Source: Candidatus Omnitrophota bacterium (GTDB lineage: Bacteria; Omnitrophota; Omnitrophia; Omnitrophales; Aquincolibacteriaceae). From it: 64,000 nt of DNA. Shown one piece after another: positions 5,537 to 64,000 of the stretch. The position numbers were made by a program, and so were the translations under genes. The first letter of the stretch is position 1. Every line of letters starts with the position of its first letter. The notes below the pieces were generated by a model, which was not told the DNA's origin, did no database searches, and saw only the letters and a program-made list of their open reading frames with translations. The stretch is taken from positions 136,572-200,571 of the forward strand of contig JAKLFP010000005.1 in assembly GCA_022711115.1 (NCBI GenBank), in the 5' to 3' direction.

Positions 5537-6877
5537 ATGACAAAAGAAATCGATGCGTTCATGAAAAAAGTCATCGCTAGGAACTCAGGCGAAAAGGAAT
5601 TTCACCAAGCGGTCAGGGAAGTTGTGGAATCTGTAACTCCGTTTATTGAAAAACACCCAAAGTATAAAAATGCGAAGATCCTAGAACGGATGGTCGAACC
5701 GGAGCGTGTGATCATGTTTCGAGTTCCCTGGTTGGATGATAAGGGAGAGATTCAGATTAATCGCGGATTTCGTATCCAGATGAACAGTGCTATTGGTCCT
5801 TACAAGGGAGGCCTTCGTTTCCATCCCAGTGTCAATCTTGGTATTTTGAAGTTTTTGGCATTTGAACAGGTCTTCAAAAATAGCCTGACCACGCTTGCCA
5901 TGGGTGGTGGCAAAGGCGGTTCGGACTTTGATCCAAAAGGAAAATCGGATCAAGAAGTTATGAAATTCTGTCAAAGTTTCATGACGGAATTGTTCCGACA
6001 CATCGGACCGGACACGGATGTTCCTGCAGGCGATATTGGTGTGGGTGGTAGGGAGATCGGTTTTCTTTACGGTCAGTACAAGAGATTGCGTAATGAGTTT
6101 ACGGGTGTTTTGACTGGGAAGAGCTTGAATTGGGGAGGAAGTTTGATTCGACCCGAGGCGACCGGTTACGGATGCGTTTATTTTGTCCAGGAAATGCTTA
6201 AGACACGAAAGATGTCTTTTGCGGGTAAGGTTTGTGTTGTTTCCGGCTCCGGGAATGTGGCACAGTACACAGTCGAAAAATTGAACCAGTTGGGTGCCAA
6301 AGTGGTGACCTTGTCGGACTCCGACGGTTACATTTATGATAAGAAGGGCATTGACGACAAGAAATTGGAATTTGTCATGCACCTTAAAAATGTAAAGCGT
6401 GGTCGTATTAAGGAATGCGCGGATGAATTCGGCTGCGAATATGTCGCCGGTCAACGGCCATGGAAAGTCGCATGCGATGTCGCTTTTCCGAGTGCCACGC
6501 AAAACGAGATCAATGAAGCGGACGCGAAGGTTCTTGTCAAGGGCGGCTGCATTGCGATCGGGGAAGGTGCCAATATGCCGACCACACCGGAAGGCGTCCG
6601 GGTGTTCCAAAAGGCGAAGATTCTCTATGCCCCTGGAAAAGCGGCGAATGCCGGGGGGGTGTCGACTTCGGGCCTGGAAATGAGCCAGAATAGCATGCGC
6701 TTGGGCTGGTCCCGGGAAGAAGTGGACAAGAAATTGCATGGCATCATGGTCTCGATTCATGAGAATTGCGTGAAATATGGAAAAGAACAGGATAAGTACA
6801 TCAACTATGTCAATGGCGCGAATATCGCGGGCTTTGTAAAGGTTGCGGACGCCATGCTTGATCAGGGGCTGGTGTAA
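5537..6877 (+). CDS. gdhA: NADP-specific glutamate dehydrogenase
   Basis: Full-length similarity in the Glu/Leu/Phe/Val dehydrogenase family. The catalytic Lys is in the GGGKGGSDFDPKGKS motif and a C-terminal Rossmann GSGNVAQY is present. Confidence 0.9.
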   Translation: MTKEIDAFMKKVIARNSGEKEFHQAVREVVESVTPFIEKHPKYKNAKILERMVEPERVIMFRVPWLDDKGEIQINRGFRIQMNSAIGPYKGGLRFHPSVNLGILKFLAFEQVFKNSLTTLAMGGGKGGSDFDPKGKSDQEVMKFCQSFMTELFRHIGPDTDVPAGDIGVGGREIGFLYGQYKRLRNEFTGVLTGKSLNWGGSLIRPEATGYGCVYFVQEMLKTRKMSFAGKVCVVSGSGNVAQYTVEKLNQLGAKVVTLSDSDGYIYDKKGIDDKKLEFVMHLKNVKRGRIKECADEFGCEYVAGQRPWKVACDVAFPSATQNEINEADAKVLVKGGCIAIGEGANMPTTPEGVRVFQKAKILYAPGKAANAGGVSTSGLEMSQNSMRLGWSREEVDKKLHGIMVSIHENCVKYGKEQDKYINYVNGANIAGFVKVADAMLDQGLV

Positions 6878-6888
6878 GCTTAGTTTCA

Positions 6889-6935
6889 AAGGGGCAGTCT
6901 TCCAGAGGTTCGGGAGATGGCCCCTTTGTTTTTTC
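6889..6935 (+). terminator. Intrinsic terminator after gdhA
   Basis: A hairpin pairs AAAGGGGC with GCCCCTTT across a loop of about 25 nt and is followed by TTTTTT. Confidence 0.55.
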
Positions 6936-6964
6936 TTGACAAATGATACTATGATAGTATCATT
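6936..6964 (+). promoter_or_regulatory. Promoter -35 (TTGACA) overlapped by a 23-bp near-perfect palindrome, AATGATACTAT-G-ATAGTATCATT; candidate Rrf2 operator
   Basis: The palindrome spans 6942-6964 and has a single central mismatch. It lies immediately upstream of the Rrf2 gene. Confidence 0.55.
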
Positions 6965-6970
6965 AAAAGA

Positions 6971-7426
6971 ATGAAGCTCATCACTCGAAACACAGATTAT
7001 GCGATGCGCGCACTTTGTTATATCGCGCAGCAAACAAAAGATTCGGTGCCTGTCACCGAAATGGTGAAGGATCTTGCTATCCCGCGCCCCTTTCTCAGGA
7101 AAATCCTTCAAACTCTAAGCGGTGAAGGGATGCTCGATTCCTACCGTGGACAGGGCGGTGGTTTCTCTCTCAGTCTTTCTCCCTCAAAAATTTTTATCAC
7201 GGATTTGATAAAAATTTTTCAGAATGCCATCCAACTTAATGAATGTATCTTTAAAAAAAAGATGTGCCCGAATCGTAAGACTTGTCTCATGAAAAGAGAG
7301 ATGGACTCTATTGAAAAAGATGTTTTGTTGCGACTGAGCCGTATCAGCATTGCTTCTTTGATTTCAAACGGGAACGGGAAGCGCTCAAATCGAGAAAGAA
7401 AAGAGGGGAGGTATGGTGAAGCTTAA
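6971..7426 (+). CDS. Rrf2-family transcriptional regulator with three Cys ligands (NsrR/IscR-like)
   Basis: The N-terminal helix-turn-helix region has the Rrf2 pattern (DYAMRALCYIA). A C-x7-C-x5-C cluster-ligand motif is present. Confidence 0.8.
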   Translation: MKLITRNTDYAMRALCYIAQQTKDSVPVTEMVKDLAIPRPFLRKILQTLSGEGMLDSYRGQGGGFSLSLSPSKIFITDLIKIFQNAIQLNECIFKKKMCPNRKTCLMKREMDSIEKDVLLRLSRISIASLISNGNGKRSNRERKEGRYGEA

Positions 7427-9104: not shown

Positions 9105-10781
9105 ATGGGGATGTTTTGTTATCAATGTGAACAAACAGCAAAAGGAAAAGGCTGCGATACCTTGGGTATCTGCGGCAAAACGCCGGAAGTCGCGACTTTG
9201 CAGGACCTGCTTATCCACGCCTTGAAGGGGATCGCAGTCTATGGGCAATTGGCGCTTGAACTGGGAGTAAAAGACAAGAATGCGGATCTTTTTCTGATCG
9301 AAGGACTTTTTACGACGGTGACGAATGTTGATTTTGATCCCGCCCGGATTCAGGAAGAGATTGTCCGAGCCTATCAAGTCAAAGAAGCCATCAAAAGATT
9401 GTTTCTGGATGCGTATAAGAAAAAAAACGGTAGAGATTTTGACGGTGAATTGCCTGCAGCCGCTTACTGGAAACCGGCAGAGACGCTTGCGGGTTTGCTG
9501 GACCAAGGGAGTAAAGTCGGCATTCTCTCCGATAAAATTTTAAATGAAGATATCCGTAGTCTTCGGGAACTTCTCCTCTATGGGCTCAAGGGCATGGCGG
9601 CTTACGCGGATCATGCGCTGATCCTTGGTAAAGAAAATGAGGAAGTTACGGCGTTTTTCCATAAAGGATTACGTGCGCTGACGAACAATAGCCTGACGGT
9701 AAATGACCTTGTCAATCTCAATATGGAATTTGGGATGGTGAATTTGAAATGTCTGGAGCTGCTGGACCAGGCGCATACGGATCATTTTGGGCATCCTGTC
9801 CCCACCAAGGTATTTTTGGGCGCGAAAAAGGGCCCGGCGATTTTGGTGTCAGGGCATGATCTTTTGGATCTGGAATGGCTGCTTCAGCAGACAGAAGGCA
9901 AAGGGATCAGTATTTATACGCACGGTGAGATGTTGCCGGCGCATGGCTATCCGGCGCTAAACAAATACAAACATCTTGTCGGTAACTACGGGGGTGCATG
10001 GCAGGATCAGGCCAAAGAATTCGATGCCTTTCCCGGTGCGATCCTCATGACGACCAATTGTATTCAAAGACCGCGTGAAACTTACCAGGACAGAATTTTT
10101 ACGACGGGACTTGTGGCTTGGCCAGGCGTTGCCCATATTTCGCTTCAAAACGGCAAAAAAGATTTTTCGCCTGTAATTCAAAAGGCCTTATCCGCAGGTG
10201 GTTTTAAGCAGGATATTCCGGGCAAAGAAATTATGGTGGGATTTGGTCACCAGGCGGTGCTTGGCGTGGCGGATAAAGTAGTGGGAGCTGTGAAAGCAGG
10301 TCAGATCCGTCATTTCTTTTTAGTGGGGGGTTGCGATGGTGCCAAACCCGGCCGAAACTACTACACGGAATTTGCCGAGCAGGCGCCCAAAGATACGGTT
10401 ATTCTGACGCTGGCCTGCGGAAAATACCGTTTCAATAAACTGGAATTCGGTGATATCGGCGGGATTCCCAGGCTTTTGGATATGGGACAATGCAATGATG
10501 CTTATTCCGCGATCCAGGTCGCGGTGGCACTATCCAAAGTATTTAACTGTGGGGTCAATGAATTACCGCTTTCGATGATCCTTTCGTGGTATGAGCAAAA
10601 GGCGGTTTGTATTCTTCTAACACTGCTGGCGCTTGGGATTCAGAATATCCGGATCGGTCCGTCTTTGCCGGCTTTCGTTAGTCCGAATGTACTCAAAGTA
10701 TTGGTGGAAAAATTCAATATTAAACCTATCACCAGTGCCAAAGAAGATTTGGAGGCTATTCTAGGAACGGCAGCAGTTTAG
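9105..10781 (+). CDS. hcp: Hybrid cluster protein / hydroxylamine reductase
   Basis: The N-terminal Cys cluster MFCYQCEQT...C..LGICGK is present and similarity extends over the full length. A GGAGG Shine-Dalgarno sequence lies 6 nt upstream of 9105. Confidence 0.9.
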   Translation: MGMFCYQCEQTAKGKGCDTLGICGKTPEVATLQDLLIHALKGIAVYGQLALELGVKDKNADLFLIEGLFTTVTNVDFDPARIQEEIVRAYQVKEAIKRLFLDAYKKKNGRDFDGELPAAAYWKPAETLAGLLDQGSKVGILSDKILNEDIRSLRELLLYGLKGMAAYADHALILGKENEEVTAFFHKGLRALTNNSLTVNDLVNLNMEFGMVNLKCLELLDQAHTDHFGHPVPTKVFLGAKKGPAILVSGHDLLDLEWLLQQTEGKGISIYTHGEMLPAHGYPALNKYKHLVGNYGGAWQDQAKEFDAFPGAILMTTNCIQRPRETYQDRIFTTGLVAWPGVAHISLQNGKKDFSPVIQKALSAGGFKQDIPGKEIMVGFGHQAVLGVADKVVGAVKAGQIRHFFLVGGCDGAKPGRNYYTEFAEQAPKDTVILTLACGKYRFNKLEFGDIGGIPRLLDMGQCNDAYSAIQVAVALSKVFNCGVNELPLSMILSWYEQKAVCILLTLLALGIQNIRIGPSLPAFVSPNVLKVLVEKFNIKPITSAKEDLEAILGTAAV

Positions 10782-10842
10782 GGTGGGGGAATCCGTTTGA
10801 AAAAAGAAGGATTCCATGATTAAATAAGAAACAAAAAGTTTA

Positions 10843-17707: not shown

Positions 17708-17716
17708 GAAAACGCT

Positions 17717-17757
17717 AAAGATCAAAGCCCGGTGTTAGAAGCCGGGCTTTGATCTTT
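17717..17757 (+). terminator. Intrinsic terminator after cspA
   Basis: A hairpin of about 16 bp pairs AAAGATCAAAGCCCGG with CCGGGCTTTGATCTTT. Confidence 0.7.
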
Positions 17758-17940
17758 ACAAAGACGTCGCAGTGCTTCCTTCCTTATCAAAAATTTTTGA
17801 GGAACCAAGGTGCTTTTTCATAGCCTTGTTTCGACAGGATTTTAAAAGCAACCAAGACTGCACTGATTTCCTTGTTTTATTTTTGGTTCACCAAAATCAG
17901 TGATGCCTTGGTTTTTTATTTATAAGGATTTTCTTACTTT

Positions 17941-26206: not shown

Positions 26207-26284
26207 TACCATTTCACGCACCCGGTGTGTGATGTGGGGTACCATAGGGCATACCGGGTGTGTGAAAGAGGTTGGAGGAAAGTT

Positions 26285-44329: not shown

Positions 44330-44484
44330 AAGCGCCAAAGTAACAAAGTCACACGCCACAAGGCCACATGTAAAGAATTATTCTGTGGCGTGTGGCTTGA
44401 GTCATGTGGCGTTGGTTATTTGACACCCCTCGCTTCATCCTATAAGATACAGAAAATTCAAAGGTTGCGGAGAACTCTTTTAAA

Positions 44485-55885: not shown

Positions 55886-58800
55886 ATGATTCGACAAAAA
55901 ACATTCAAATCGTTCATCGCGTCTTTCACGGCCTTTACTTTTTTCTTCACGAGTCTCGGTTTTAATGGTTCTCTTTTTGCCGCGGCGACCATGCCCGAAG
56001 TATCCCTGCCTTATCAGGCTGTTTTAGGCCAGAATATTCGCATTTCGCTTCCGCAAGATATCGGCAAAATCGAAAATTTGAAAATCGGAAAAAGCGGTCT
56101 TCCGGTTGTTTTCCACATTCAAACCGCGCACGGACACTATCAGGCCCAAAAACAAATCCAAGCCATTCTGAAACATTTGGATCAGAATTATGGCGTGAAG
56201 ACAGCGTTGGTCGAAGGCAGTGCTTTCAAGCTCAATCCGGAAATCCTGCGTTTCTTTCCTTCCGACATGGATCTGACCTTGAAGATTGCCGATGAACTCA
56301 CCAAGCAAGCGCTTGTCAAAGGCCCGGAGCTTTATCTGCTTGATTCCAAGGGCAGTCAGGCTTTCGGTATCGAAAAGGCCGAAGCCTATCGCGCAAACCG
56401 TGCGTCCTTTGTCGACGTTCTAGAAGAGCAGAAAAAAACAGGTCAGTTTCTCGCCGATATGAACATGAGTATCGAGCGCCTTTCAAGTCATTATCTGAGT
56501 AAAGACCTTCGCGATTTTCTCAAACGCCTTGAATCTTTCGAAAAGAACCAACTGCCGTTTGAGCAATGGCTTTCTTATCTTAAGGAGGAAGCCCAAAAAC
56601 GTCTGAATGTCGATTTGACGCAGACGGGTTATCAGGTCGAATGGCCGATGCTTGTCCGCCTTTTTAAGGTTCAAGAACTCTCTCGAAAACTAGATAAGCA
56701 GGCTTATCAGAAGGAAAAAGACTTGTTTCTCAAAGCCATCCGTTCTATTTCAAAAACCACTTATGCAGAGATTGAAGCACTTCTGAACAATCCCAATCTT
56801 GCCCGCCAGTTGCCGGATCCGGAAACCAGTCTTTTGTTCGAGGACATGGTTCGTCAACTGCCGCGTCAGTTTAATTATGAGGCCTTTCCGAATGTGCGCT
56901 ACTATGCCGGTTGTTTGATCCTTCAAAGCGAGATAAAGGCTGTAGGGCTTATGTCGGAGACCCAAAAGCTTACGGATCTTATCACTCGGAAACTGACCCG
57001 AAATAAAGAGGAACACAAGCTTTTAACCCTTTTAAAAGACCACCGTCTTCTTCAGAAACTGTTTGCTCTGGAGTTACTGCCCGCCGATTACGAACAAATC
57101 CTCGAACGGGGGATGACGGATGCCGGATGGAGCTTAAAACCCTCCGAACTTGTCAAACGCTTTAGCCCTGCTATTTTCCAACCTTCGTCCAATATCCGAA
57201 GAGTCAAAGATGTAGCATTTACCCACATCGCCGATCTCGACATCCTTTTCAACAAGGCTATGAAATTTTATAAAGGTGTCAAAATGCGCGATGCACTTAT
57301 GGAACAGATGATCGAACAGCGTCTCCAGGAGACAGGCGCCACGAAAGTCGCGGTCATCACCGGGGGCTTTCACTCCGGGCCTTTTCAGGATTATTTCTCG
57401 AATAAAGATTATACGTACGCGCTCATTTCTCCGAAGATTTCCGGGGCGGATGACAAGGGCCATGAGGCTTATATCCAGAACATGATCGATTTTACTTTTC
57501 ACCCGGTCAAAGCGGCTACCATTGAATCAGCATTTTCTGCCGATCTCGGGATGAATGAAACACAAGCCGCCTCGGTTGGTCTTTCTCTCAGAGTTGCCCG
57601 CACAGCATTTGTTTCTGCGGTACGTGAAATCGTCGCCCATGTGGCCCAAGATCACAAAGACGCCTTTGCCGTTCTCCGCGCGCATTTCAAGAAAGTATTC
57701 GAAACGGGAGAACTTGCCGCGGTGCCTCAAATGGTCCCGATCCCTTCGCCGGCCACAGCGCCTGTTTTGAATGCGCGGTCCGAAGTGCGGGCCGAAGCGA
57801 CTGAGAATATTGATTTGAAAAATGCGATTCTTTTAGCCCTTATCAGTCACCTTCAACTTGCGGATATCGATCGAAGACTTCTCGATACAGATATTGTGGA
57901 AGAAATCCAGGGTAAATTGACGCTCCCCGCACGGCGCTTGGACGCGTTGTTTCAGCGGCATAAAGGGCAGCCTATTTTGAATGTTCAGGGGGCACAGAGT
58001 GTGGCTCGAAGTTTTGATCTGTTTTTGAGACGAAAAGAGGAAGTGGATCTTTATAAGACGCAGTTTTTTGAAATCCCCAAAACAGCCTATGTCGTTGAAG
58101 TCAAAAGTAACCCTAAAAAACCGGTTGAACCCGATATTTTTGGTACGGATCAGGATGCCCTGCGAGAACAGATCAAATTTATTTCGATTCTTAACCATTT
58201 GACACAGCCCGGGAAACAAAATCTCTTCAACAAATTTCTCGGGCATCCTGATGTCCAATATTACAAGACGATTCGCAAGGTTCGCGAAATGTACAAGCAA
58301 AAAGAAGGTCGAGGGCAGAATGACCAACTTGTGATGGGAGAAATACCCACGCTTGCGACTTTTGACCTTTTCCGGCAAAGGCTAAAAGAAGTGCTCAAGG
58401 GTGAAGAGTTTCTTGCGGAGGATGATGTGAAATTCATCAATCGCTTGAAGGGCGAAATCGACCGATTCATCGATTTAAACGATCTCATGAGCGAACTCCT
58501 TCATCAGGCCATGGACCGCGATTCGATTTCCCGTGAAGATGCGAACATTCTTCTTTATTTGCAGCAGGTGGGGGTGGGGGTGGTCAGCGAAGAAGTCGCT
58601 CAGGCAATCAAGAGCGATACCCATTATGTTAGTCTCGGCGCTTATAAGTATGGGTTGCAATATAACCCTGGCCGTGCTAAACGGAGCGGACTTTTTAAAG
58701 GGCATATGGTGGGAAGGCAAACGGAAACGATTGTGGCAGAGTCTTATGTCAATGATTTCCTCCCGCTTCAACGGCATCTGCGTGCCGGTAAAGCCGATGC

Positions 58801-61800
58801 CGGACTTCGCATCAGGGAACTTGCCAATCCCTATCCGCATAAATTTGCCAGCCGTAATACGGTTTTTGATCCGATTCAGCCCCAGGTCGTAAATCTTGAA
58901 GACCTGGAAAGTTTGTTGCGCAATCTGAGAGAAAGTACACCCTCCGGTGAACCGACGCGGTACCGCGGATTTTTTAACGGGCCATTCGCTGGTTTTACCA
59001 TCCCGCATCTTCATTATCAAGGTTTTCTCGGTGAAACCAAGATGGAAGAAGCCTTGAAGCAGGAGGGCGCGCTGGAACTGTTGGGTGTCGATAAAAACAA
59101 TATTAAACATTTCCGTCTTAATAATGAATTTTTTAAAGACAAAGCCCAATTTCCGTTGCGTTCCACCATAGTCATTGAAGGAAGAGATCCTGAGGCTACG
59201 GCGCAAGCGGTCATTGAAATTTTGAAATTAGCTAATGACAAAGAAAAACTAGGCAAAAAGAAAAAGTCCCTTCCCATTACCAAAGAATCTCTTTTTACCT
59301 ACAATATTCTTTTTTCTGATAATGGCGAATTTTCTCGCGTCTATGTGATGATGAATCGCATTGTGCTTGATCCGCTGAATCCTCCCGGAAGCCTTACGGA
59401 AAGGAATACACTCGTCTATTCTAATAAGGAAGAGCATAAGGAAAGAGTCAAAGCATTAAAAAGCGAATTGAAAAAAATCCGCCAGAAATTTCCGCCACTC
59501 TGGAAAAAACATGGGCAAATTGAGGGGAAGGCAGAGAAAGAGGCGTATCTAAAACAAGAGATCGAACCCTTGCAGAAAGAATACGGTAAAAAAGTCACGG
59601 AGGCTATCAAGGAAACCGTCATTCTCTTTCAAGGAAGACCTGCTAGCGTGGAGATGACCGATCTTCTGATCTTCGGGGATCCCAACCAGGAAAAAAGTTT
59701 TAAGACGATCCTGGAAAGCGCGGATTTACAACGGTACGTGATTGATGAAGTTTTTAACGAGAGGGTGTATCCGGATTTTGAAGACTTAATTAAAAAAGTG
59801 CAAGCTTCCTTGACATCTGGAGCTGTTCGTTCCGAGGTACGTTCACCCGATCAAATCCGGGGATTGCCAACCCTGGCAATACCCGGATTTGCCAAGGGTC
59901 GCTCGGAGGCGCACAGCAGTCTCCGCACTGAGAGTGACAAAGCCACCGTACGTGCTGAGATGAGGGCTGATGAAAGCCGTAACAAGAGACCTTTCCAGGT
60001 CGTAAAATATTTAGAGGCCGTGACAGAGGGAGGAAGCGTCACTTCTCCGGAATCTCAACCATTTCATGGTCAGGTGGGAGCCCGACCGGATGCGCCCTCG
60101 GTGCATTTAAGCAATCGACAGATTGCAGGCGCAGTCGGAAAAATGAGAAAAACTTCTGGTCGTTCGGAAGCGCGAAACGAGAGTAAATGGCATGAATTGC
60201 AGAGACAAATACAAGCTGTGGTTGATGCCCGTGAGGCAGTCATCAAGGGCCTGCAAGATGATCATCATCAGGCCGTTGCTGCTTTGCATCGTGAACTTCC
60301 GGGTAAAGAAAATGCCACTGCTCGTGCTTTGCGTATCGAACTCATGCATGAAGATCTTGAAAAGGCCGTCCACAAAATTAATCACGATGCTGGACGTCAG
60401 ATCGAAAAGCTGAATGTGCGGCAACGGCAACTTTCCGACTCCCGCTCCGAAGTAAGGAGCGCGGTATGGCCCAAGGATTCGGTTATTTTGAAATCCCAAT
60501 ATGAAACTTTGACACCCCCGCAACAAGAGGTGGTAAGGCAAGTGACGGAATTGCTTGATAGTGCTGGCAGTCATGTCGCAAGGTATAAACCGACCGTGAA
60601 ATATGCCGAGTTGACGGGTGGCAGCCAGACTTTTCGCGATTGGCGGGATATCCATCCAGGTGAATGGGATCTTAATGAAATTTTGGCGGGGATTCCTCTT
60701 GAGGCGGACTGGCAGCGAAATCTTATAGCGGAACATTTTTTTGATGCTTTTCGCAGGGGTTATGACCGGACGAAATCAGGAGTCATGAGCCGGGCACGCG
60801 GTTTGATTTTATTTCAGATTCAACGTCAGCCGGATGTGGAGCCGGATGCTTCCGTGACGACAACCGTTTTTCGCTATTTTAAAGACGTGCTTCCCGTTGC
60901 TAGCGATCTTCACCGGAAAATAAGTCATCAGGAGACATGGTTAAAACGAATGGGAGGTTCCGAGCTTTATCATTTGATCGTTCTCATTGAGCCGGATCCC
61001 ATGGTGCCGTATGTTGACGCCAATCGGTATGCCGGCATTTTACATGTCCTGGCATTGGGCAAAAAGGCTGCTGAAAAACTTCAATCGCTTTTGACAAATA
61101 ATCCCGAAGCTCTTCCCTATGCGCTTCGTAATAGCACAAGAACGGCTTTTAAAAATACTTATGAGGGATTTGTCAGGCCGACGTTGGACGCCGCCGGATT
61201 TTACAGGCCTTTGAATGTCGAAGACACTGCCCAACGCGATTTCGTCATTGCCCAGACAGATCAGCCTGCCCGCTCGGAGGCACGTAGTAGCCTCAGCACT
61301 GAAAACACCACGGGTGCTGTACGTGCCGAGCTGAGGGATGCTGGCAAACTTGCTATTGAACTTTCCATTTTGTCAGGGCTTCTTTATCCCGAGGAAAACC
61401 GAAAACCGGCAGGTTTTCAGAATACCCGGCTTTTGAGCCAGCTTAATGCGCCATTATTTGGCGGAATTCTTTTTGAGACTTTGAGAATTGTGGATCAGGA
61501 GATCGCAAAAGGGTCTGACGCGAAAGGATCCGCGGCGTGGAGAAAAATAAAAGCTGCTTATACAAAAGAACTAAAACAAACCATCAACCGGGAAAACAGG
61601 TCAAACCGGCTATTATCGGATCATCAAGCCGCGGATTTTTTAAGACGTTTTACGGCCGATCTTGCGACTGCCAGGATCTTTGCCCGCTCGGAGGCACGTA
61701 GTAGCCTTCGCACTGAGAGCACCACGGGTGCCGTACGTGCCGAGGTGAGGGGCATGGAGGTTGTCAAGGATGGTGTTCCGCTCCGTTCCGAAGTACGGAG

Positions 61801-64000
61801 TTGGGATGCTGAAATCATGAAGCAATTCAAAGCGATGTTTAGCAGAATGCTTGGCGCCAATTTGCCGGTTGGAACAGATATCACTATGCATACGCGCCTG
61901 AGGGAAGATCTGGGGATGGATGCGGATGGTTCGACAGACGATTTCAGCTTCTTTTTGCCCGATGCACTTGTGGGCACATTTAATCTTAACGTTCCGCAAA
62001 GTGAAATAAACCGCTGGCAGACGGTGGGCGATGTTTTCAACTATGTCAAAGGTCAACTTATCCGCTCTGGGGTGAGGCATAGAGGGTTATTGCCGGAACC
62101 GTGGCAGCGGATTACTCATGAATCGTTAGACAAGATCCGGCCAGGAACGGTTATTTATCATTGGATCGGATCACGGAGCACATTTGAATATTTAGGCCGT
62201 TCCGCGGACGAAAAGTTCTGGCTGATTGCGTTAAATCAAGATAGGCAGAGGATGCAGGGCGCTCGGCCCGTTGCAGTGGAAAGTCGCGAATTGATAGGGG
62301 GGTCTTTCTTGCAGACTGGCCTTTCCCGTTCCGAAACAGAGACCGGAGTTTGGGTTCCTTTAGATGCAGATAAAAAGGGAGCCTTGATTATTCCAAAGGG
62401 CAGTCGTGTGCGGAAGGGAGAAAGAGAGTACACGGTTACCGAACGGATTGCATCCGGCGCATCCGGGAAAGTGGAGTTCACTTATGGCTTAAAGGAGTAT
62501 CCGGCCACTTCGAGGCCGACAACCGCTCTTGGGTTGACGGAGATGGTGAGGGCTGGCTACGAGCTTTTCATTCCTTTTGTAAATGTTGAAGAGCTAAAAA
62601 CTTCGGAAGTCATTCATTCCGAGGTGCGGATTACCGGATCAAAACCCGGTTTTGAATCTCGCGGCCCCGAAGCCGAAAACCGGGTTTTGGATTCCCGCTC
62701 CGAGGTGAGGACTGCAGGACCGACGTTCCAGGGAGTGAATCTTTTTAAGGTGGTTTTTGGAAATTCAGCAAACACAAATTTGGCAATATTGCAGGAAGCC
62801 GTCAAAAAAAATTCGCCCCAAAGTCCCCAAATAAGCAAGGCAATACATGACGTAGCTCCATCGGTTTCCAAGAGAAAATTGCCGCTTCCTTCCGGAAATT
62901 TGACAGCATTCTCATTTGATGACGGGGTTCTTGAGCGGGTTTATGTTGCGGCCGATAAAGGGCAGCTAACGATTACTCAAATACTCGAATCGATTCTCAT
63001 GCCCGAGTCGAATAAATCGATGGTCTTGCAAGTCAGTAACAAGGGCGCGTTGCTTACTTTTTACCGGGTTGAGGGCGAATCGCCGATGGTGCAGCCGTTT
63101 TTCAAAAAGCTGAATCTTGCTTTGATTCGGGAAGTGGAAGTAATACCTGCACAGCCGGGCGGGTATCCTTCGATGATCTTAAAGACCTCACGGAGGCAAA
63201 GTCCTGAACTTCAAAGGTGGATCACCGCATTTCAACAGGCGCAGCGACAGGACGATTTCAGGGTGAGCGTGCTGATCCAGGCTGTGCAATCCACGCGACG
63301 TTCCGAGGCGCGAATTATCGGATCAAAACCCGGTTTTGAATCTCGCGGCCCCGAAGCCGAAAACCGGGTTTTGGATTCCCGCTCCGAGGTGAGGGCCATG
63401 GAAGAAGTCAGGGTCCTTGTTGCCGATAAGCCGGAAAGCGGGATGGCGGGATTAGAGAAGCTTATTGAAGGGTTTGGAAAAAACGCGAAGCTTGTGGGGC
63501 TTGCGGGGGTCGGTAAAGATGAAGCTCAACTCCGCAAGACGATTGAAGAAAACCATCCGACGATCGTGACAATCCGCGGTGTGACGAAGGCTTTCAAAAA
63601 CCCTGAATTTGTAAAATGGGCGGGCACGCAGGGCGTCCGCGCCATCATCCGCTACGGCGCCGGTGTTGACAATGTGGACCAACCTGCTGCAAAAGAAGCG
63701 GGCATCTCGGTCATCCCGACGTTTGGCAACGCCAACTCCGTCGCTAATTTTTCACTCCGTTTTTTAATCGCCGCTTTGAATCTCTCGGAACCGGAAGAAC
63801 AGGGGCCTGTGAAGGATCTTTCGGTAGAGGATCAATGGAAAGATGTTCTGGATGTGCCGTTGAGCGACATTGAGCAGGCGCTGGCAAGTTCGCTTGCAAA
63901 AGGCCGCGGAGAAATGATCAGCGGGCATCAGCAAAAAGTTTTCCGGGCGATTTCCGGCGAACGTTTGATCGCTCTTGTAAAAAAACTTGAAGGTAAAACG
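55886..64000 (+). CDS. Giant multidomain ORF (more than 2700 codons, 3' end beyond the window). It has an N-terminal signal peptide, recurring R-S-E-[V/A]-R linker motifs, a carrier-protein-like module near 61800-62050 and a D-2-hydroxyacid-dehydrogenase-like module from 63398
   Basis: I translated codon by codon from ATG 55886 to 64000 and found no in-frame stop. An in-frame TGA lies immediately upstream. Every minus-strand ORF in this span is short. The carrier-like domain reads ...REDLGMDADGSTDDFSFF.... The terminal domain reads MEEVRVLVAD...RYGAGVDNVD...AKEAGI.V..T.G.NA.SVA. Confidence 0.75.
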   Translation, partial: MIRQKTFKSFIASFTAFTFFFTSLGFNGSLFAAATMPEVSLPYQAVLGQNIRISLPQDIGKIENLKIGKSGLPVVFHIQTAHGHYQAQKQIQAILKHLDQNYGVKTALVEGSAFKLNPEILRFFPSDMDLTLKIADELTKQALVKGPELYLLDSKGSQAFGIEKAEAYRANRASFVDVLEEQKKTGQFLADMNMSIERLSSHYLSKDLRDFLKRLESFEKNQLPFEQWLSYLKEEAQKRLNVDLTQTGYQVEWPMLVRLFKVQELSRKLDKQAYQKEKDLFLKAIRSISKTTYAEIEALLNNPNLARQLPDPETSLLFEDMVRQLPRQFNYEAFPNVRYYAGCLILQSEIKAVGLMSETQKLTDLITRKLTRNKEEHKLLTLLKDHRLLQKLFALELLPADYEQILERGMTDAGWSLKPSELVKRFSPAIFQPSSNIRRVKDVAFTHIADLDILFNKAMKFYKGVKMRDALMEQMIEQRLQETGATKVAVITGGFHSGPFQDYFSNKDYTYALISPKISGADDKGHEAYIQNMIDFTFHPVKAATIESAFSADLGMNETQAASVGLSLRVARTAFVSAVREIVAHVAQDHKDAFAVLRAHFKKVFETGELAAVPQMVPIPSPATAPVLNARSEVRAEATENIDLKNAILLALISHLQLADIDRRLLDTDIVEEIQGKLTLPARRLDALFQRHKGQPILNVQGAQSVARSFDLFLRRKEEVDLYKTQFFEIPKTAYVVEVKSNPKKPVEPDIFGTDQDALREQIKFISILNHLTQPGKQNLFNKFLGHPDVQYYKTIRKVREMYKQKEGRGQNDQLVMGEIPTLATFDLFRQRLKEVLKGEEFLAEDDVKFINRLKGEIDRFIDLNDLMSELLHQAMDRDSISREDANILLYLQQVGVGVVSEEVAQAIKSDTHYVSLGAYKYGLQYNPGRAKRSGLFKGHMVGRQTETIVAESYVNDFLPLQRHLRAGKADAGLRIRELANPYPHKFASRNTVFDPIQPQVVNLEDLESLLRNLRESTPSGEPTRYRGFFNGPFAGFTIPHLHYQGFLGETKMEEALKQEGALELLGVDKNNIKHFRLNNEFFKDKAQFPLRSTIVIEGRDPEATAQAVIEILKLANDKEKLGKKKKSLPITKESLFTYNILFSDNGEFSRVYVMMNRIVLDPLNPPGSLTERNTLVYSNKEEHKERVKALKSELKKIRQKFPPLWKKHGQIEGKAEKEAYLKQEIEPLQKEYGKKVTEAIKETVILFQGRPASVEMTDLLIFGDPNQEKSFKTILESADLQRYVIDEVFNERVYPDFEDLIKKVQASLTSGAVRSEVRSPDQIRGLPTLAIPGFAKGRSEAHSSLRTESDKATVRAEMRADESRNKRPFQVVKYLEAVTEGGSVTSPESQPFHGQVGARPDAPSVHLSNRQIAGAVGKMRKTSGRSEARNESKWHELQRQIQAVVDAREAVIKGLQDDHHQAVAALHRELPGKENATARALRIELMHEDLEKAVHKINHDAGRQIEKLNVRQRQLSDSRSEVRSAVWPKDSVILKSQYETLTPPQQEVVRQVTELLDSAGSHVARYKPTVKYAELTGGSQTFRDWRDIHPGEWDLNEILAGIPLEADWQRNLIAEHFFDAFRRGYDRTKSGVMSRARGLILFQIQRQPDVEPDASVTTTVFRYFKDVLPVASDLHRKISHQETWLKRMGGSELYHLIVLIEPDPMVPYVDANRYAGILHVLALGKKAAEKLQSLLTNNPEALPYALRNSTRTAFKNTYEGFVRPTLDAAGFYRPLNVEDTAQRDFVIAQTDQPARSEARSSLSTENTTGAVRAELRDAGKLAIELSILSGLLYPEENRKPAGFQNTRLLSQLNAPLFGGILFETLRIVDQEIAKGSDAKGSAAWRKIKAAYTKELKQTINRENRSNRLLSDHQAADFLRRFTADLATARIFARSEARSSLRTESTTGAVRAEVRGMEVVKDGVPLRSEVRSWDAEIMKQFKAMFSRMLGANLPVGTDITMHTRLREDLGMDADGSTDDFSFFLPDALVGTFNLNVPQSEINRWQTVGDVFNYVKGQLIRSGVRHRGLLPEPWQRITHESLDKIRPGTVIYHWIGSRSTFEYLGRSADEKFWLIALNQDRQRMQGARPVAVESRELIGGSFLQTGLSRSETETGVWVPLDADKKGALIIPKGSRVRKGEREYTVTERIASGASGKVEFTYGLKEYPATSRPTTALGLTEMVRAGYELFIPFVNVEELKTSEVIHSEVRITGSKPGFESRGPEAENRVLDSRSEVRTAGPTFQGVNLFKVVFGNSANTNLAILQEAVKKNSPQSPQISKAIHDVAPSVSKRKLPLPSGNLTAFSFDDGVLERVYVAADKGQLTITQILESILMPESNKSMVLQVSNKGALLTFYRVEGESPMVQPFFKKLNLALIREVEVIPAQPGGYPSMILKTSRRQSPELQRWITAFQQAQRQDDFRVSVLIQAVQSTRRSEARIIGSKPGFESRGPEAENRVLDSRSEVRAMEEVRVLVADKPESGMAGLEKLIEGFGKNAKLVGLAGVGKDEAQLRKTIEENHPTIVTIRGVTKAFKNPEFVKWAGTQGVRAIIRYGAGVDNVDQPAAKEAGISVIPTFGNANSVANFSLRFLIAALNLSEPEEQGPVKDLSVEDQWKDVLDVPLSDIEQALASSLAKGRGEMISGHQQKVFRAISGERLIALVKKLEGKT
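59900..59965. repeat. 66-nt in-frame repeat unit (encodes RSEA[HR]SSL[RS]TE...VRAE[MLV]R), divergent copy A
   Basis: It begins CGCTCGGAGGCRCA and ends GTACGTGCYGAGNTGAGG. It has a terminal inverted repeat in which GGCACGTA pairs with TACGTGCC. Confidence 0.7.
61271..61336. repeat. 66-nt in-frame repeat unit, copy B
   Basis: It is about 90% identical to copy C at 61685-61750. Confidence 0.75.
61685..61750. repeat. 66-nt in-frame repeat unit, copy C
   Basis: It is about 90% identical to copy B. It is followed 35 nt later by another RSEVR word at 61783. Confidence 0.75.
62617..62710. repeat. 94-nt in-frame palindromic repeat unit, copy 1 (direct repeats of CCGAGGTG[C/A]GG flank an inverted repeat made of AAAACCCGGTTTT and AAAACCGGGTTTT)
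   Basis: Its 3' 72 nt are identical to copy 2 at 63301-63394. It encodes SEVRITGSKPGFESRGPEAENRVLDSRSEVR. Confidence 0.8.
63301..63394. repeat. 94-nt in-frame palindromic repeat unit, copy 2
   Basis: It is near-identical to 62617-62710 and immediately precedes the Met of the dehydrogenase-like module. Confidence 0.8.

Follow-up and report, generated by a model that had tools for sequence, protein, structure and literature searches.

In-frame palindromic spacers between doubled copies of a pentapeptide motif at the module joints of a giant Omnitrophota gene

Viral polyproteins, Kex2-processed repeat precursors and gingipain polyproteins carry a short motif at the boundaries of their units, in some cases doubled around a spacer. 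REP/REPIN and terminator-like repeats (e.g. SPRITE) are genome-specific, short, G+C-rich hairpins, of which the classical ones are extragenic and linked to a RAYT transposase. Rickettsia palindromic elements (RPEs) are palindromes that lie in frame in protein genes, where the peptide they encode is tolerated; there are several families, some of them conserved between species (PMC10969869). Omnitrophota encode giant multi-enzyme proteins with many unrelated enzyme domains per open reading frame (ORF) and an N-terminal signal or transmembrane segment (10.64898/2026.06.07.730766; 10.1101/2023.11.21.568195); cleavage of these proteins is suspected, with the cleavage points stated as unknown (10.1101/2023.11.21.568195). 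Here we describe one such giant gene from a Candidatus Omnitrophota bacterium, which occupies the end of a 64,000-nt stretch (GCA_022711115.1, contig JAKLFP010000005.1, positions 136,572 to 200,571; the window in what follows) and in which short repeats, some of them palindromic, lie between two copies of a pentapeptide motif, R-[S/A]-E-x-R, at joints between modules.

RPEs, REP and terminator-like repeats, and polyprotein linkers are the closest known kinds, and none of them fits fully. Like the RPEs, the repeats described here are short, translated, in-frame and palindromic, form hairpins and fall into several families. RPEs are ~150 bp long and scattered through unrelated ordinary genes, whereas the present repeats are 57-190 nt long, lie at module joints or in head-domain loops of giant genes, are bracketed at the joints by a conserved peptide motif, and have relatives at ordinary gene ends. 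With REP/REPIN and terminator-like repeats they share the form of a genome-specific, short, G+C-rich hairpin, in some cases placed just after a stop codon (17716-17758 in the window; loci L018 and L019). They differ from the classical ones in having copies in frame and only one extragenic relative, with no RAYT in the available sequence. With the polyproteins they share one short motif at the boundaries of complete functional units, sometimes doubled around a short spacer, but here a bacterial gene exceeding 10,000 codons has ordinary metabolic enzymes as its units, and the motifs are candidate cut sites. The gene belongs to the class of Omnitrophota giant multi-enzyme proteins, the published accounts of which (10.64898/2026.06.07.730766; 10.1101/2023.11.21.568195) describe no junction motif, linkers, palindromes or cassettes, and a literature search for RSEVR returned nothing relevant. 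Throughout, L-numbers denote loci of other sources and P-numbers denote proteins among the 120 homologues of the giant ORF.

With moderate confidence we read the region as a set of inter-module junction spacers in a giant, stop-less, multi-module Omnitrophota gene, spread by recombination ending in the motif words, with the motif acting as a processing site. A head domain of ~540 aa is all that the related genes share; after it come strings of modules that vary from gene to gene, those that could be mapped being complete proteins, and at some joints a doubled motif brackets a short in-frame spacer. A 66-nt unit is one spacer family, and a 40-nt palindrome together with 96-nt repeats is a second, genome-specific one. 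Spacers and modules would be copied between joints by homology-driven recombination with its end points in the motif words and with no sign of a transposase. The motif would be a candidate proteolytic site that releases the modules, and where it is doubled, cleavage would also set free a short spacer peptide. The hairpins might work in the mRNA as their intergenic relatives do, or might be tolerated passengers (selfish DNA) in a disordered linker.

The giant ORF, its head domain and the junction motifs outside the repeat units are as follows.

55886..64000, plus strand: giant ORF, without a stop up to the window end; contains all features of the finding.
55886..57565, plus strand: N-terminal helix and ~540-aa head domain (TGGFH motif), which opens every family member.
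57776..57790, plus strand: RSEVR junction motif, the first after the head domain.
59828..59842, plus strand: RSEVR junction motif, left bracket of the palindrome spacer.
60161..60175, plus strand: RSEAR junction motif.
60443..60457, plus strand: RSEVR junction motif.
61784..61798, plus strand: RSEVR junction motif; an acyl-carrier-protein (ACP)-like module begins directly after it.

On JGI contig Ga0209507_1000075 the ORF is called at 10,238 aa or more and extends to the contig end. The readable part of the gene is 9.6 kb of at least 30.7 kb, and the copy numbers given below for this genome are counts within the readable sequence. A Logan assembly made independently (SRR4244739) has 100% identity across 13.9 kb that cover all three 66-nt repeat copies, so the repeats are not an assembly artefact; other assemblies of the organism are either identical in this region or end before the giant gene. 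The 120 homologues are all 1,500-4,700 aa long, and each one with a named source is an Omnitrophota giant protein. Beyond the N-terminal head domain of ~540 aa they share nothing else, and their enzyme domains are very different. The head domain has invariant His, Glu and GGFH positions, with E110, R468 and GGFH (493-496) among those invariant throughout, and its AF2 model is confident (pLDDT 85.6). The next giant gene in L028 (14932-16755) starts with the same ~540-aa head domain. The closest relatives found have ~60% protein identity in this domain.

What the original prediction treated as a DNA word is for the most part a peptide motif, R[SA]ExR, that marks module boundaries in these 120 homologous giant proteins. 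RSE[VA]R occurs 11 times in the giant ORF, and the 3 remaining six-frame matches in the window all fall in non-coding frames. In the homologues there are 218 occurrences of RSE[VA]R and ~560 of R-[S/A]-E-[VLAMSIT]-R, where chance would give less than one per variant, and the long loci of related metagenome-assembled genomes carry 13-19 motifs per ~3,900 aa. The flanks of the motif are not conserved, yet rich in Pro, Ser, Thr and Ala. Its coding pattern is CGY-KCN-GAR-NNN-MGN, with the last Arg coded by AGG, CGG, AGA and CGN; as both CGN and AGR codons are used, it is the amino acid that is selected at this position.

Where domains could be mapped, the motif brackets whole proteins. The L012 protein contains a full-length glucose-6-phosphate isomerase (residues 2032-2588; model positions 4-542 of 544) that is flanked by motifs at residues 2019-2023 and 2591-2595, an adenylate kinase in L010 is bracketed likewise, and in the window the ACP-like and the 2-hydroxyacid dehydrogenase modules each begin directly after a motif. 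The linkers that join complete enzymes measure ~5-10 residues, and some of these enzymes are oligomeric. Hydrophobic segments resembling signal peptides are 3.6-fold enriched after the motif. Since complete proteins are bracketed by the motif and signal-like segments follow it, the giant gene looks like a string of whole genes fused without stop codons. Six of the homologues (P0015, P0027, P0032, P0084, P0034 and P0064) have Tat-type (RRxFL plus a hydrophobic run) or Sec-like signals deep inside the protein, directly after a motif; a preprint on giant proteins dismisses internal signal-peptide calls as impossible (10.64898/2026.06.07.730766). Judged from the complete enzymes on their short linkers, the export signals of some modules and the cleavage suspected in the literature, R[SA]ExR is probably a proteolytic processing site.

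Besides this selection on the amino acid, the motif is restricted in its codons. The first Arg is never coded by AGR (0/92; background 26%) and is CGY in ~90% of cases, and the Ser is never coded by AGY (0/76; background 33%); ordinary Arg-Ser dipeptides of the same genes have no such bias, and sequence context does not explain it. This restriction fits a descent of the joints by DNA copying, with purifying selection barring the switch from TCN to AGY, and there may be an extra nucleotide constraint on the motif word. The heptamer YTCSGAR inside the word is a near-palindrome. A selected DNA palindrome was considered and rejected, since there is no covariation between its two variable positions (Fisher p = 0.67) and no enrichment of the heptamer outside the giant gene. 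An internal ribosome-binding site was rejected as well: GAGGTGAGG is present in some copies only, GAA is used in 58%, and a following Met is enriched just 1.2-1.3-fold. At two places, 61736-61756 and 63380-63403, GAGGTGAGGG(G/C)CATGG gives a ribosome-binding-site-like sequence with an in-frame ATG directly after the motif, and the ATG at 63398 starts the 2-hydroxyacid dehydrogenase module (MEEVRVLVADK); given the same weak enrichment of Met after motifs, this arrangement is not general.

Doubled motifs occur at some joints, and one family of the spacers that they enclose is the 66-nt unit, in which two motifs, RSEA[R/H] and RAExR, surround a 12-aa spacer.

59900..59965, plus strand: 66-nt copy A, RSEAH + 12-aa spacer + RAEMR; its nearest copy is L028 9660-9725 (85% nucleotide identity).
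61271..61336, plus strand: 66-nt copy B, RSEAR + spacer + RAELR.
61685..61750, plus strand: 66-nt copy C, RSEAR + spacer + RAEVR.
61337..61684, plus strand: 116-aa module that has copies B and C as direct repeats on its two sides; no homologue found.

The original prediction had placed three in-frame copies here, and all three were recovered with the expected peptides (RSEAHSSLRTESDKATVRAEMR, RSEARSSLSTENTTGAVRAELR and RSEARSSLRTESTTGAVRAEVR), bounded exactly by the word. Repeat detection reported 61267-61337 (reference), 59896-59966 (69%) and 61681-61751 (92%), and a degenerate 57-nt pattern matched just these three sites and none in 100 shuffled sequences. Copies B and C had been said to differ at about 6 of 66 nt; we counted exactly 6, 3 synonymous and 3 nonsynonymous (dS 0.19, dN 0.065). 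An identity far above that of the surrounding coding sequence, also proposed, could not be upheld, as there is no baseline for it: B and C lack homologous flanks. The proposed 8-bp inverted repeat, GGCACGTA/TACGTGCC, is present in B and C but absent from A (GGCGCACA, TACGTGCT) and from the L028 copy, and the conserved fold described below uses other pairings.

Recent copying at the DNA level had been predicted, with synonymous divergence near zero. Copying is real, as the B/C values and a pair of 96-nt units (below) attest. Between A and either B or C, however, dS is 1.0-1.3 and thus saturated, while dN is 0.16-0.21 (dN/dS ~0.15), so that the copies are not very recent and A is an old copy whose peptide has been kept under constraint. 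The prediction that the core would recur in relatives was borne out. Members of the family occur in giant genes of three other metagenomic sources: the copy in L028 (GCA_043803685.1) is 85% identical to A, a higher identity than A has with B or C; a 63-nt copy lies in L007; and L026 has the first half. P0003 has the unit at the peptide level. A pattern scan of a metagenome collection that lacks the source contig gave 0 matches, and protein searches with the doubled 22-aa unit and with the segment from B through the module to C found none. At identical residues, codon identity is 62-89% in the unit and, for the same pairs of genes, 40-46% in the head domain; the synonymous sites of the unit are conserved between species.

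RNAalifold on five copies gave two hairpins, the first GGAGGC-N8-GCCTCC and the second with an invariant GCAC/GTGC base, above which the upper stem switches from GTGRC/GCCAC to GCACC/GGTGC. Pairing in this consensus fold extends to 91.7% of cells, compared with 32-49% in slid controls, and six pairs show double changes. Some covariation thus speaks for the predicted two-hairpin fold, which is suggestive only, because the sample is small and the structure was taken from the same sequences. Covariance-model matches of the unit above noise are all on the sense strand. Against shuffles of synonymous codons the whole units had z = -0.6, -2.5 and -1.2, that is, no consistent extra folding stability.

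The second kind of spacer holds palindromes.

59843..59899, plus strand: 57-nt in-frame spacer SPDQIRGLPTLAIPGFAKG, which holds the 17/18-bp palindrome 59852-59891.
62615..62710, plus strand: 96-nt unit, HSEVR + ITGSKPGFESRGPEAENRVLDS + RSEVR, with a perfect 14-bp palindrome at 62640-62689.
63299..63394, plus strand: second 96-nt unit, palindrome 63324-63373; an ATG and then the 2-hydroxyacid dehydrogenase module come after it.

The palindrome that had been predicted upstream of copy A, between CGTTCCGAGGTACGT and CGCTCGGAGGCGCAC, is there: its arms, 59852-59869 and 59874-59891, are complementary at 17 of 18 positions around a 4-nt loop. The pair of 96-nt units goes beyond what had been noticed before; the two copies differ at 4 of 96 nt and flank a 197-aa module. 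Compared with synonymous-codon shuffles of the same peptide, the palindrome spacer folds with z = -4.1 (none of 300 shuffles as stable; z = -3.9 with the bracketing words) and the 96-nt units with z = -2.6 and -2.0. In the window part of the ORF only 4 inverted repeats have 11 or more paired bases, and 3 of them are these palindromes, each of which lies 7-9 nt from a motif and between two motif copies. The palindrome spacer and the 96-nt family share a 5' flank and arm, ACCNGATCAAAWCCSGG, and every repeat copy is translated in the frame of the giant ORF without stops. As the stems are nearly pure Watson-Crick and have no strand asymmetry, palindromes at the DNA level fit at least as well as an evolved RNA structure. 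A terminator scan made no call, and we rejected canonical intrinsic terminators as an identity for the hairpins.

A relative of these palindromes lies outside the giant gene.

17716..17758, no strand assigned: perfect 17-bp terminator-like intergenic hairpin, 10 nt past the stop of a cold-shock gene; arm GATCAAAGCCCGG.

This is the best intergenic hairpin of the window. Its arm, GATCAAAGCCCGG, is similar to those of the in-frame palindromes; the arm was not found in loci of other species. Per family there are two to three copies in 65 kb, all in one gene, in addition to this one intergenic relative. Further inverted repeats were noted in, or at the edges of, gaps between listed ORFs at 17850-17913, 26212-26267 and 44333-44411.

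That different hairpin cores stand between two copies of the same word was confirmed for this gene and for three further sources. Hairpin cassettes bracketed by the motif are present in L027, L028 and L029, with z down to -6.1, and down to -4.9 in L029 and L028. In L027 one gene carries 7-8 copies, 97-100% identical, of a 48-nt hairpin cassette; L027 also has a motif-bracketed in-frame unit of ~186 nt in three copies (6865-7041, 9676-9852 and 10621-10797), which forms four to five hairpins (-95 to -98 kcal/mol) and has no Rfam match. In other species the same palindrome families are found in the frame of the giant gene, in head-domain loops and at the ends of ordinary genes. Palindromes of the GGGGAAC-repeat type span stop codons of ordinary genes (L018 2377-2402 and 4396-4417; L019 3430-3455 and 5449-5470) and also lie within the reading frame of giant genes in L028, L011 and L012. 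Palindromic inserts with stems of 11-17 bp are in frame in variable parts of the head domains of L008 (1582-1607), L009 (10591-10616), L013 (10426-10460) and L011 (1835-1897); those of L008, L009 and L013 are at an LLD/GIE loop site, where the gene of the window has no insert. We read the palindromes as REP-like or terminator-like repeats of the genome that stand in frame at joints behaving like intergenic spacers. At the majority of joints, and in the majority of species, no hairpin was found, and a hairpin as a general property of motif doublets was rejected, because most doublets of other species have none; one hairpin-free doublet is conserved in at least 5 loci.

Because terminator-like palindromes and one structured unit shared across species persist in frame at the joints, the comparison suggests that the giant genes are operons that have lost their stop codons. 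The pentapeptide, bracketing whole enzymes where domains were mapped and present in more than 100 giant proteins, supplies concrete candidate cut points for a class of genes acknowledged to be a puzzle. Existing metaproteomes offer a check on these points, and structure prediction could take giant proteins in pieces divided there. The repeats would also extend in-frame palindromic repeats beyond Rickettsia.

How the copies moved can be judged from where their similarity ends. Between B and C it stops within 4 nt of the motif words, and the modules are flanked by direct repeats. P0009 and P0010 come from different sources and are nearly the same protein: apart from a single residue, what distinguishes them is a tandem duplication that takes in exactly one 92-aa module and one motif. 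Genes that share the head domain have wholly different module content. At some units the words can pair through CTCGG/CCGAG. Recombination or conversion ending in the words is the mechanism we infer in preference to transposition with target duplication, because the similarity ends at the words, direct repeats flank the modules, an indel of this kind separates P0009 from P0010, the bracketing words are no more alike than any two words, and no transposase or recombinase lies in the 55 kb upstream.

Several observations weigh against our overall account. Cleavage is a prediction from sequence here, and no protease could be assigned to it. Fold and family searches with the head domain gave nothing significant, the weak hints being to ChaN, EreA-like proteins, HopBA1 and DUF5682/DUF5694, and genome and metagenome scans with it found no relative above 60% identity. 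The covariation set consists of 5 sequences of 2 subtypes from which the structure was itself derived, the stems have few G-U pairs and no sense/antisense asymmetry, and the link between in-frame and intergenic hairpins is a 13-nt arm. Descent accounts only partly for the restriction of the first Arg to CGY, and the copy counts cover the readable fraction of the gene given above.

R[SA]ExR and its quasi-palindromic coding word might together be a grammar with two uses in the construction of stop-less operons, in the DNA as a crossover point for in-frame swaps of whole genes and spacer cassettes between giant genes, and in the protein as a cut site at which the head domain or another protease frees the single enzymes, with the 66-nt unit as a dedicated structured signal; this we consider rather unlikely.

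The original prediction, taken as a whole, is partly supported. Its interpretation of the units as mobile elements, of the miniature inverted-repeat or REP-like kind, whose insertion is specific to the word and duplicates it, now appears improbable. The cores are palindromic, repeated and always between two words, the L027 cassette is present in numerous near-identical copies in one gene, the same palindrome families turn up at several unrelated places in other species, and the near-palindromic YTCSGAR would let two words serve as inverted ends. Insertion with duplication should leave matching words on the two sides of a unit, yet the bracketing words agree at 9.3 of 15 positions, compared with 10.6 of 15 for any two words of the gene, and are no more alike than random pairs. 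We found no signature of a target-site duplication, and the units are accordingly not miniature inverted-repeat transposable elements by that measure. No transposase, recombinase or integrase is encoded in the 55 kb upstream within the window, which hold housekeeping genes only. The word occurs ~560 times without an insert and under amino-acid selection, most doublets elsewhere are hairpin-less, the 66-nt peptide is under purifying selection, and the 8-bp inverted repeat is not conserved.

About equally improbable, in our view, is that the units are mainly functional RNA structures of the giant mRNA, such as processing, pausing or stabilising hairpins at module boundaries, with the peptide as a by-product. 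The conserved synonymous sites of the 66-nt unit, the compensatory changes in its second hairpin, the exclusively sense covariance-model matches, the regular distance of hairpins from motifs and the likeness to the intergenic terminator-like hairpin all favour such a function. Against it, no Rfam 15 family matches the spacers or units at or near gathering score, the stems have few G-U pairs and no strand asymmetry, hairpins are missing at most joints and in most species, and dN/dS of ~0.15 between A and B/C means that the peptide is constrained too.

A reading as ordinary low-complexity linker repeats, made by slippage or duplication and with a meaning at the protein level or none, was already weakened by these data, and we judge it very improbable. 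Ser, Pro, Gly and Thr abound in the spacer peptides, which look disordered, short motif doublets are barely above chance (11.9% vs 8.7%), and doublets elsewhere do not fold; the hairpin stability far beyond codon-shuffled controls, the cross-species codon identity of the unit, the restricted codon families of the motif and the dispersed rather than tandem placement of the copies all argue the other way. Least credible of all, and close to dismissed, are integron-like sites, with the word as crossover core, the palindromic spacers as attC-like sites and the modules as in-frame cassettes: the complete difference in module content among genes with a common head domain, the 57-190-nt palindromes bracketed by words able to pair, and the module-sized indel ending at words with repeats flanking modules recall such a system, but there is no integrase in the 55 kb upstream and no GTTRRRY core (the core here being YTCSGAR), most joints consist of a single word without palindrome, and the heptamer shows neither the covariation nor the enrichment outside the giant gene mentioned above.

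One giant protein, P0016, includes a CsrA (RNA-binding global regulator) domain as a module at residues 715-767. Antisense to the giant ORF, on the minus strand, an ATG-initiated ORF of 209 aa at 60107-60736 is probably spurious.

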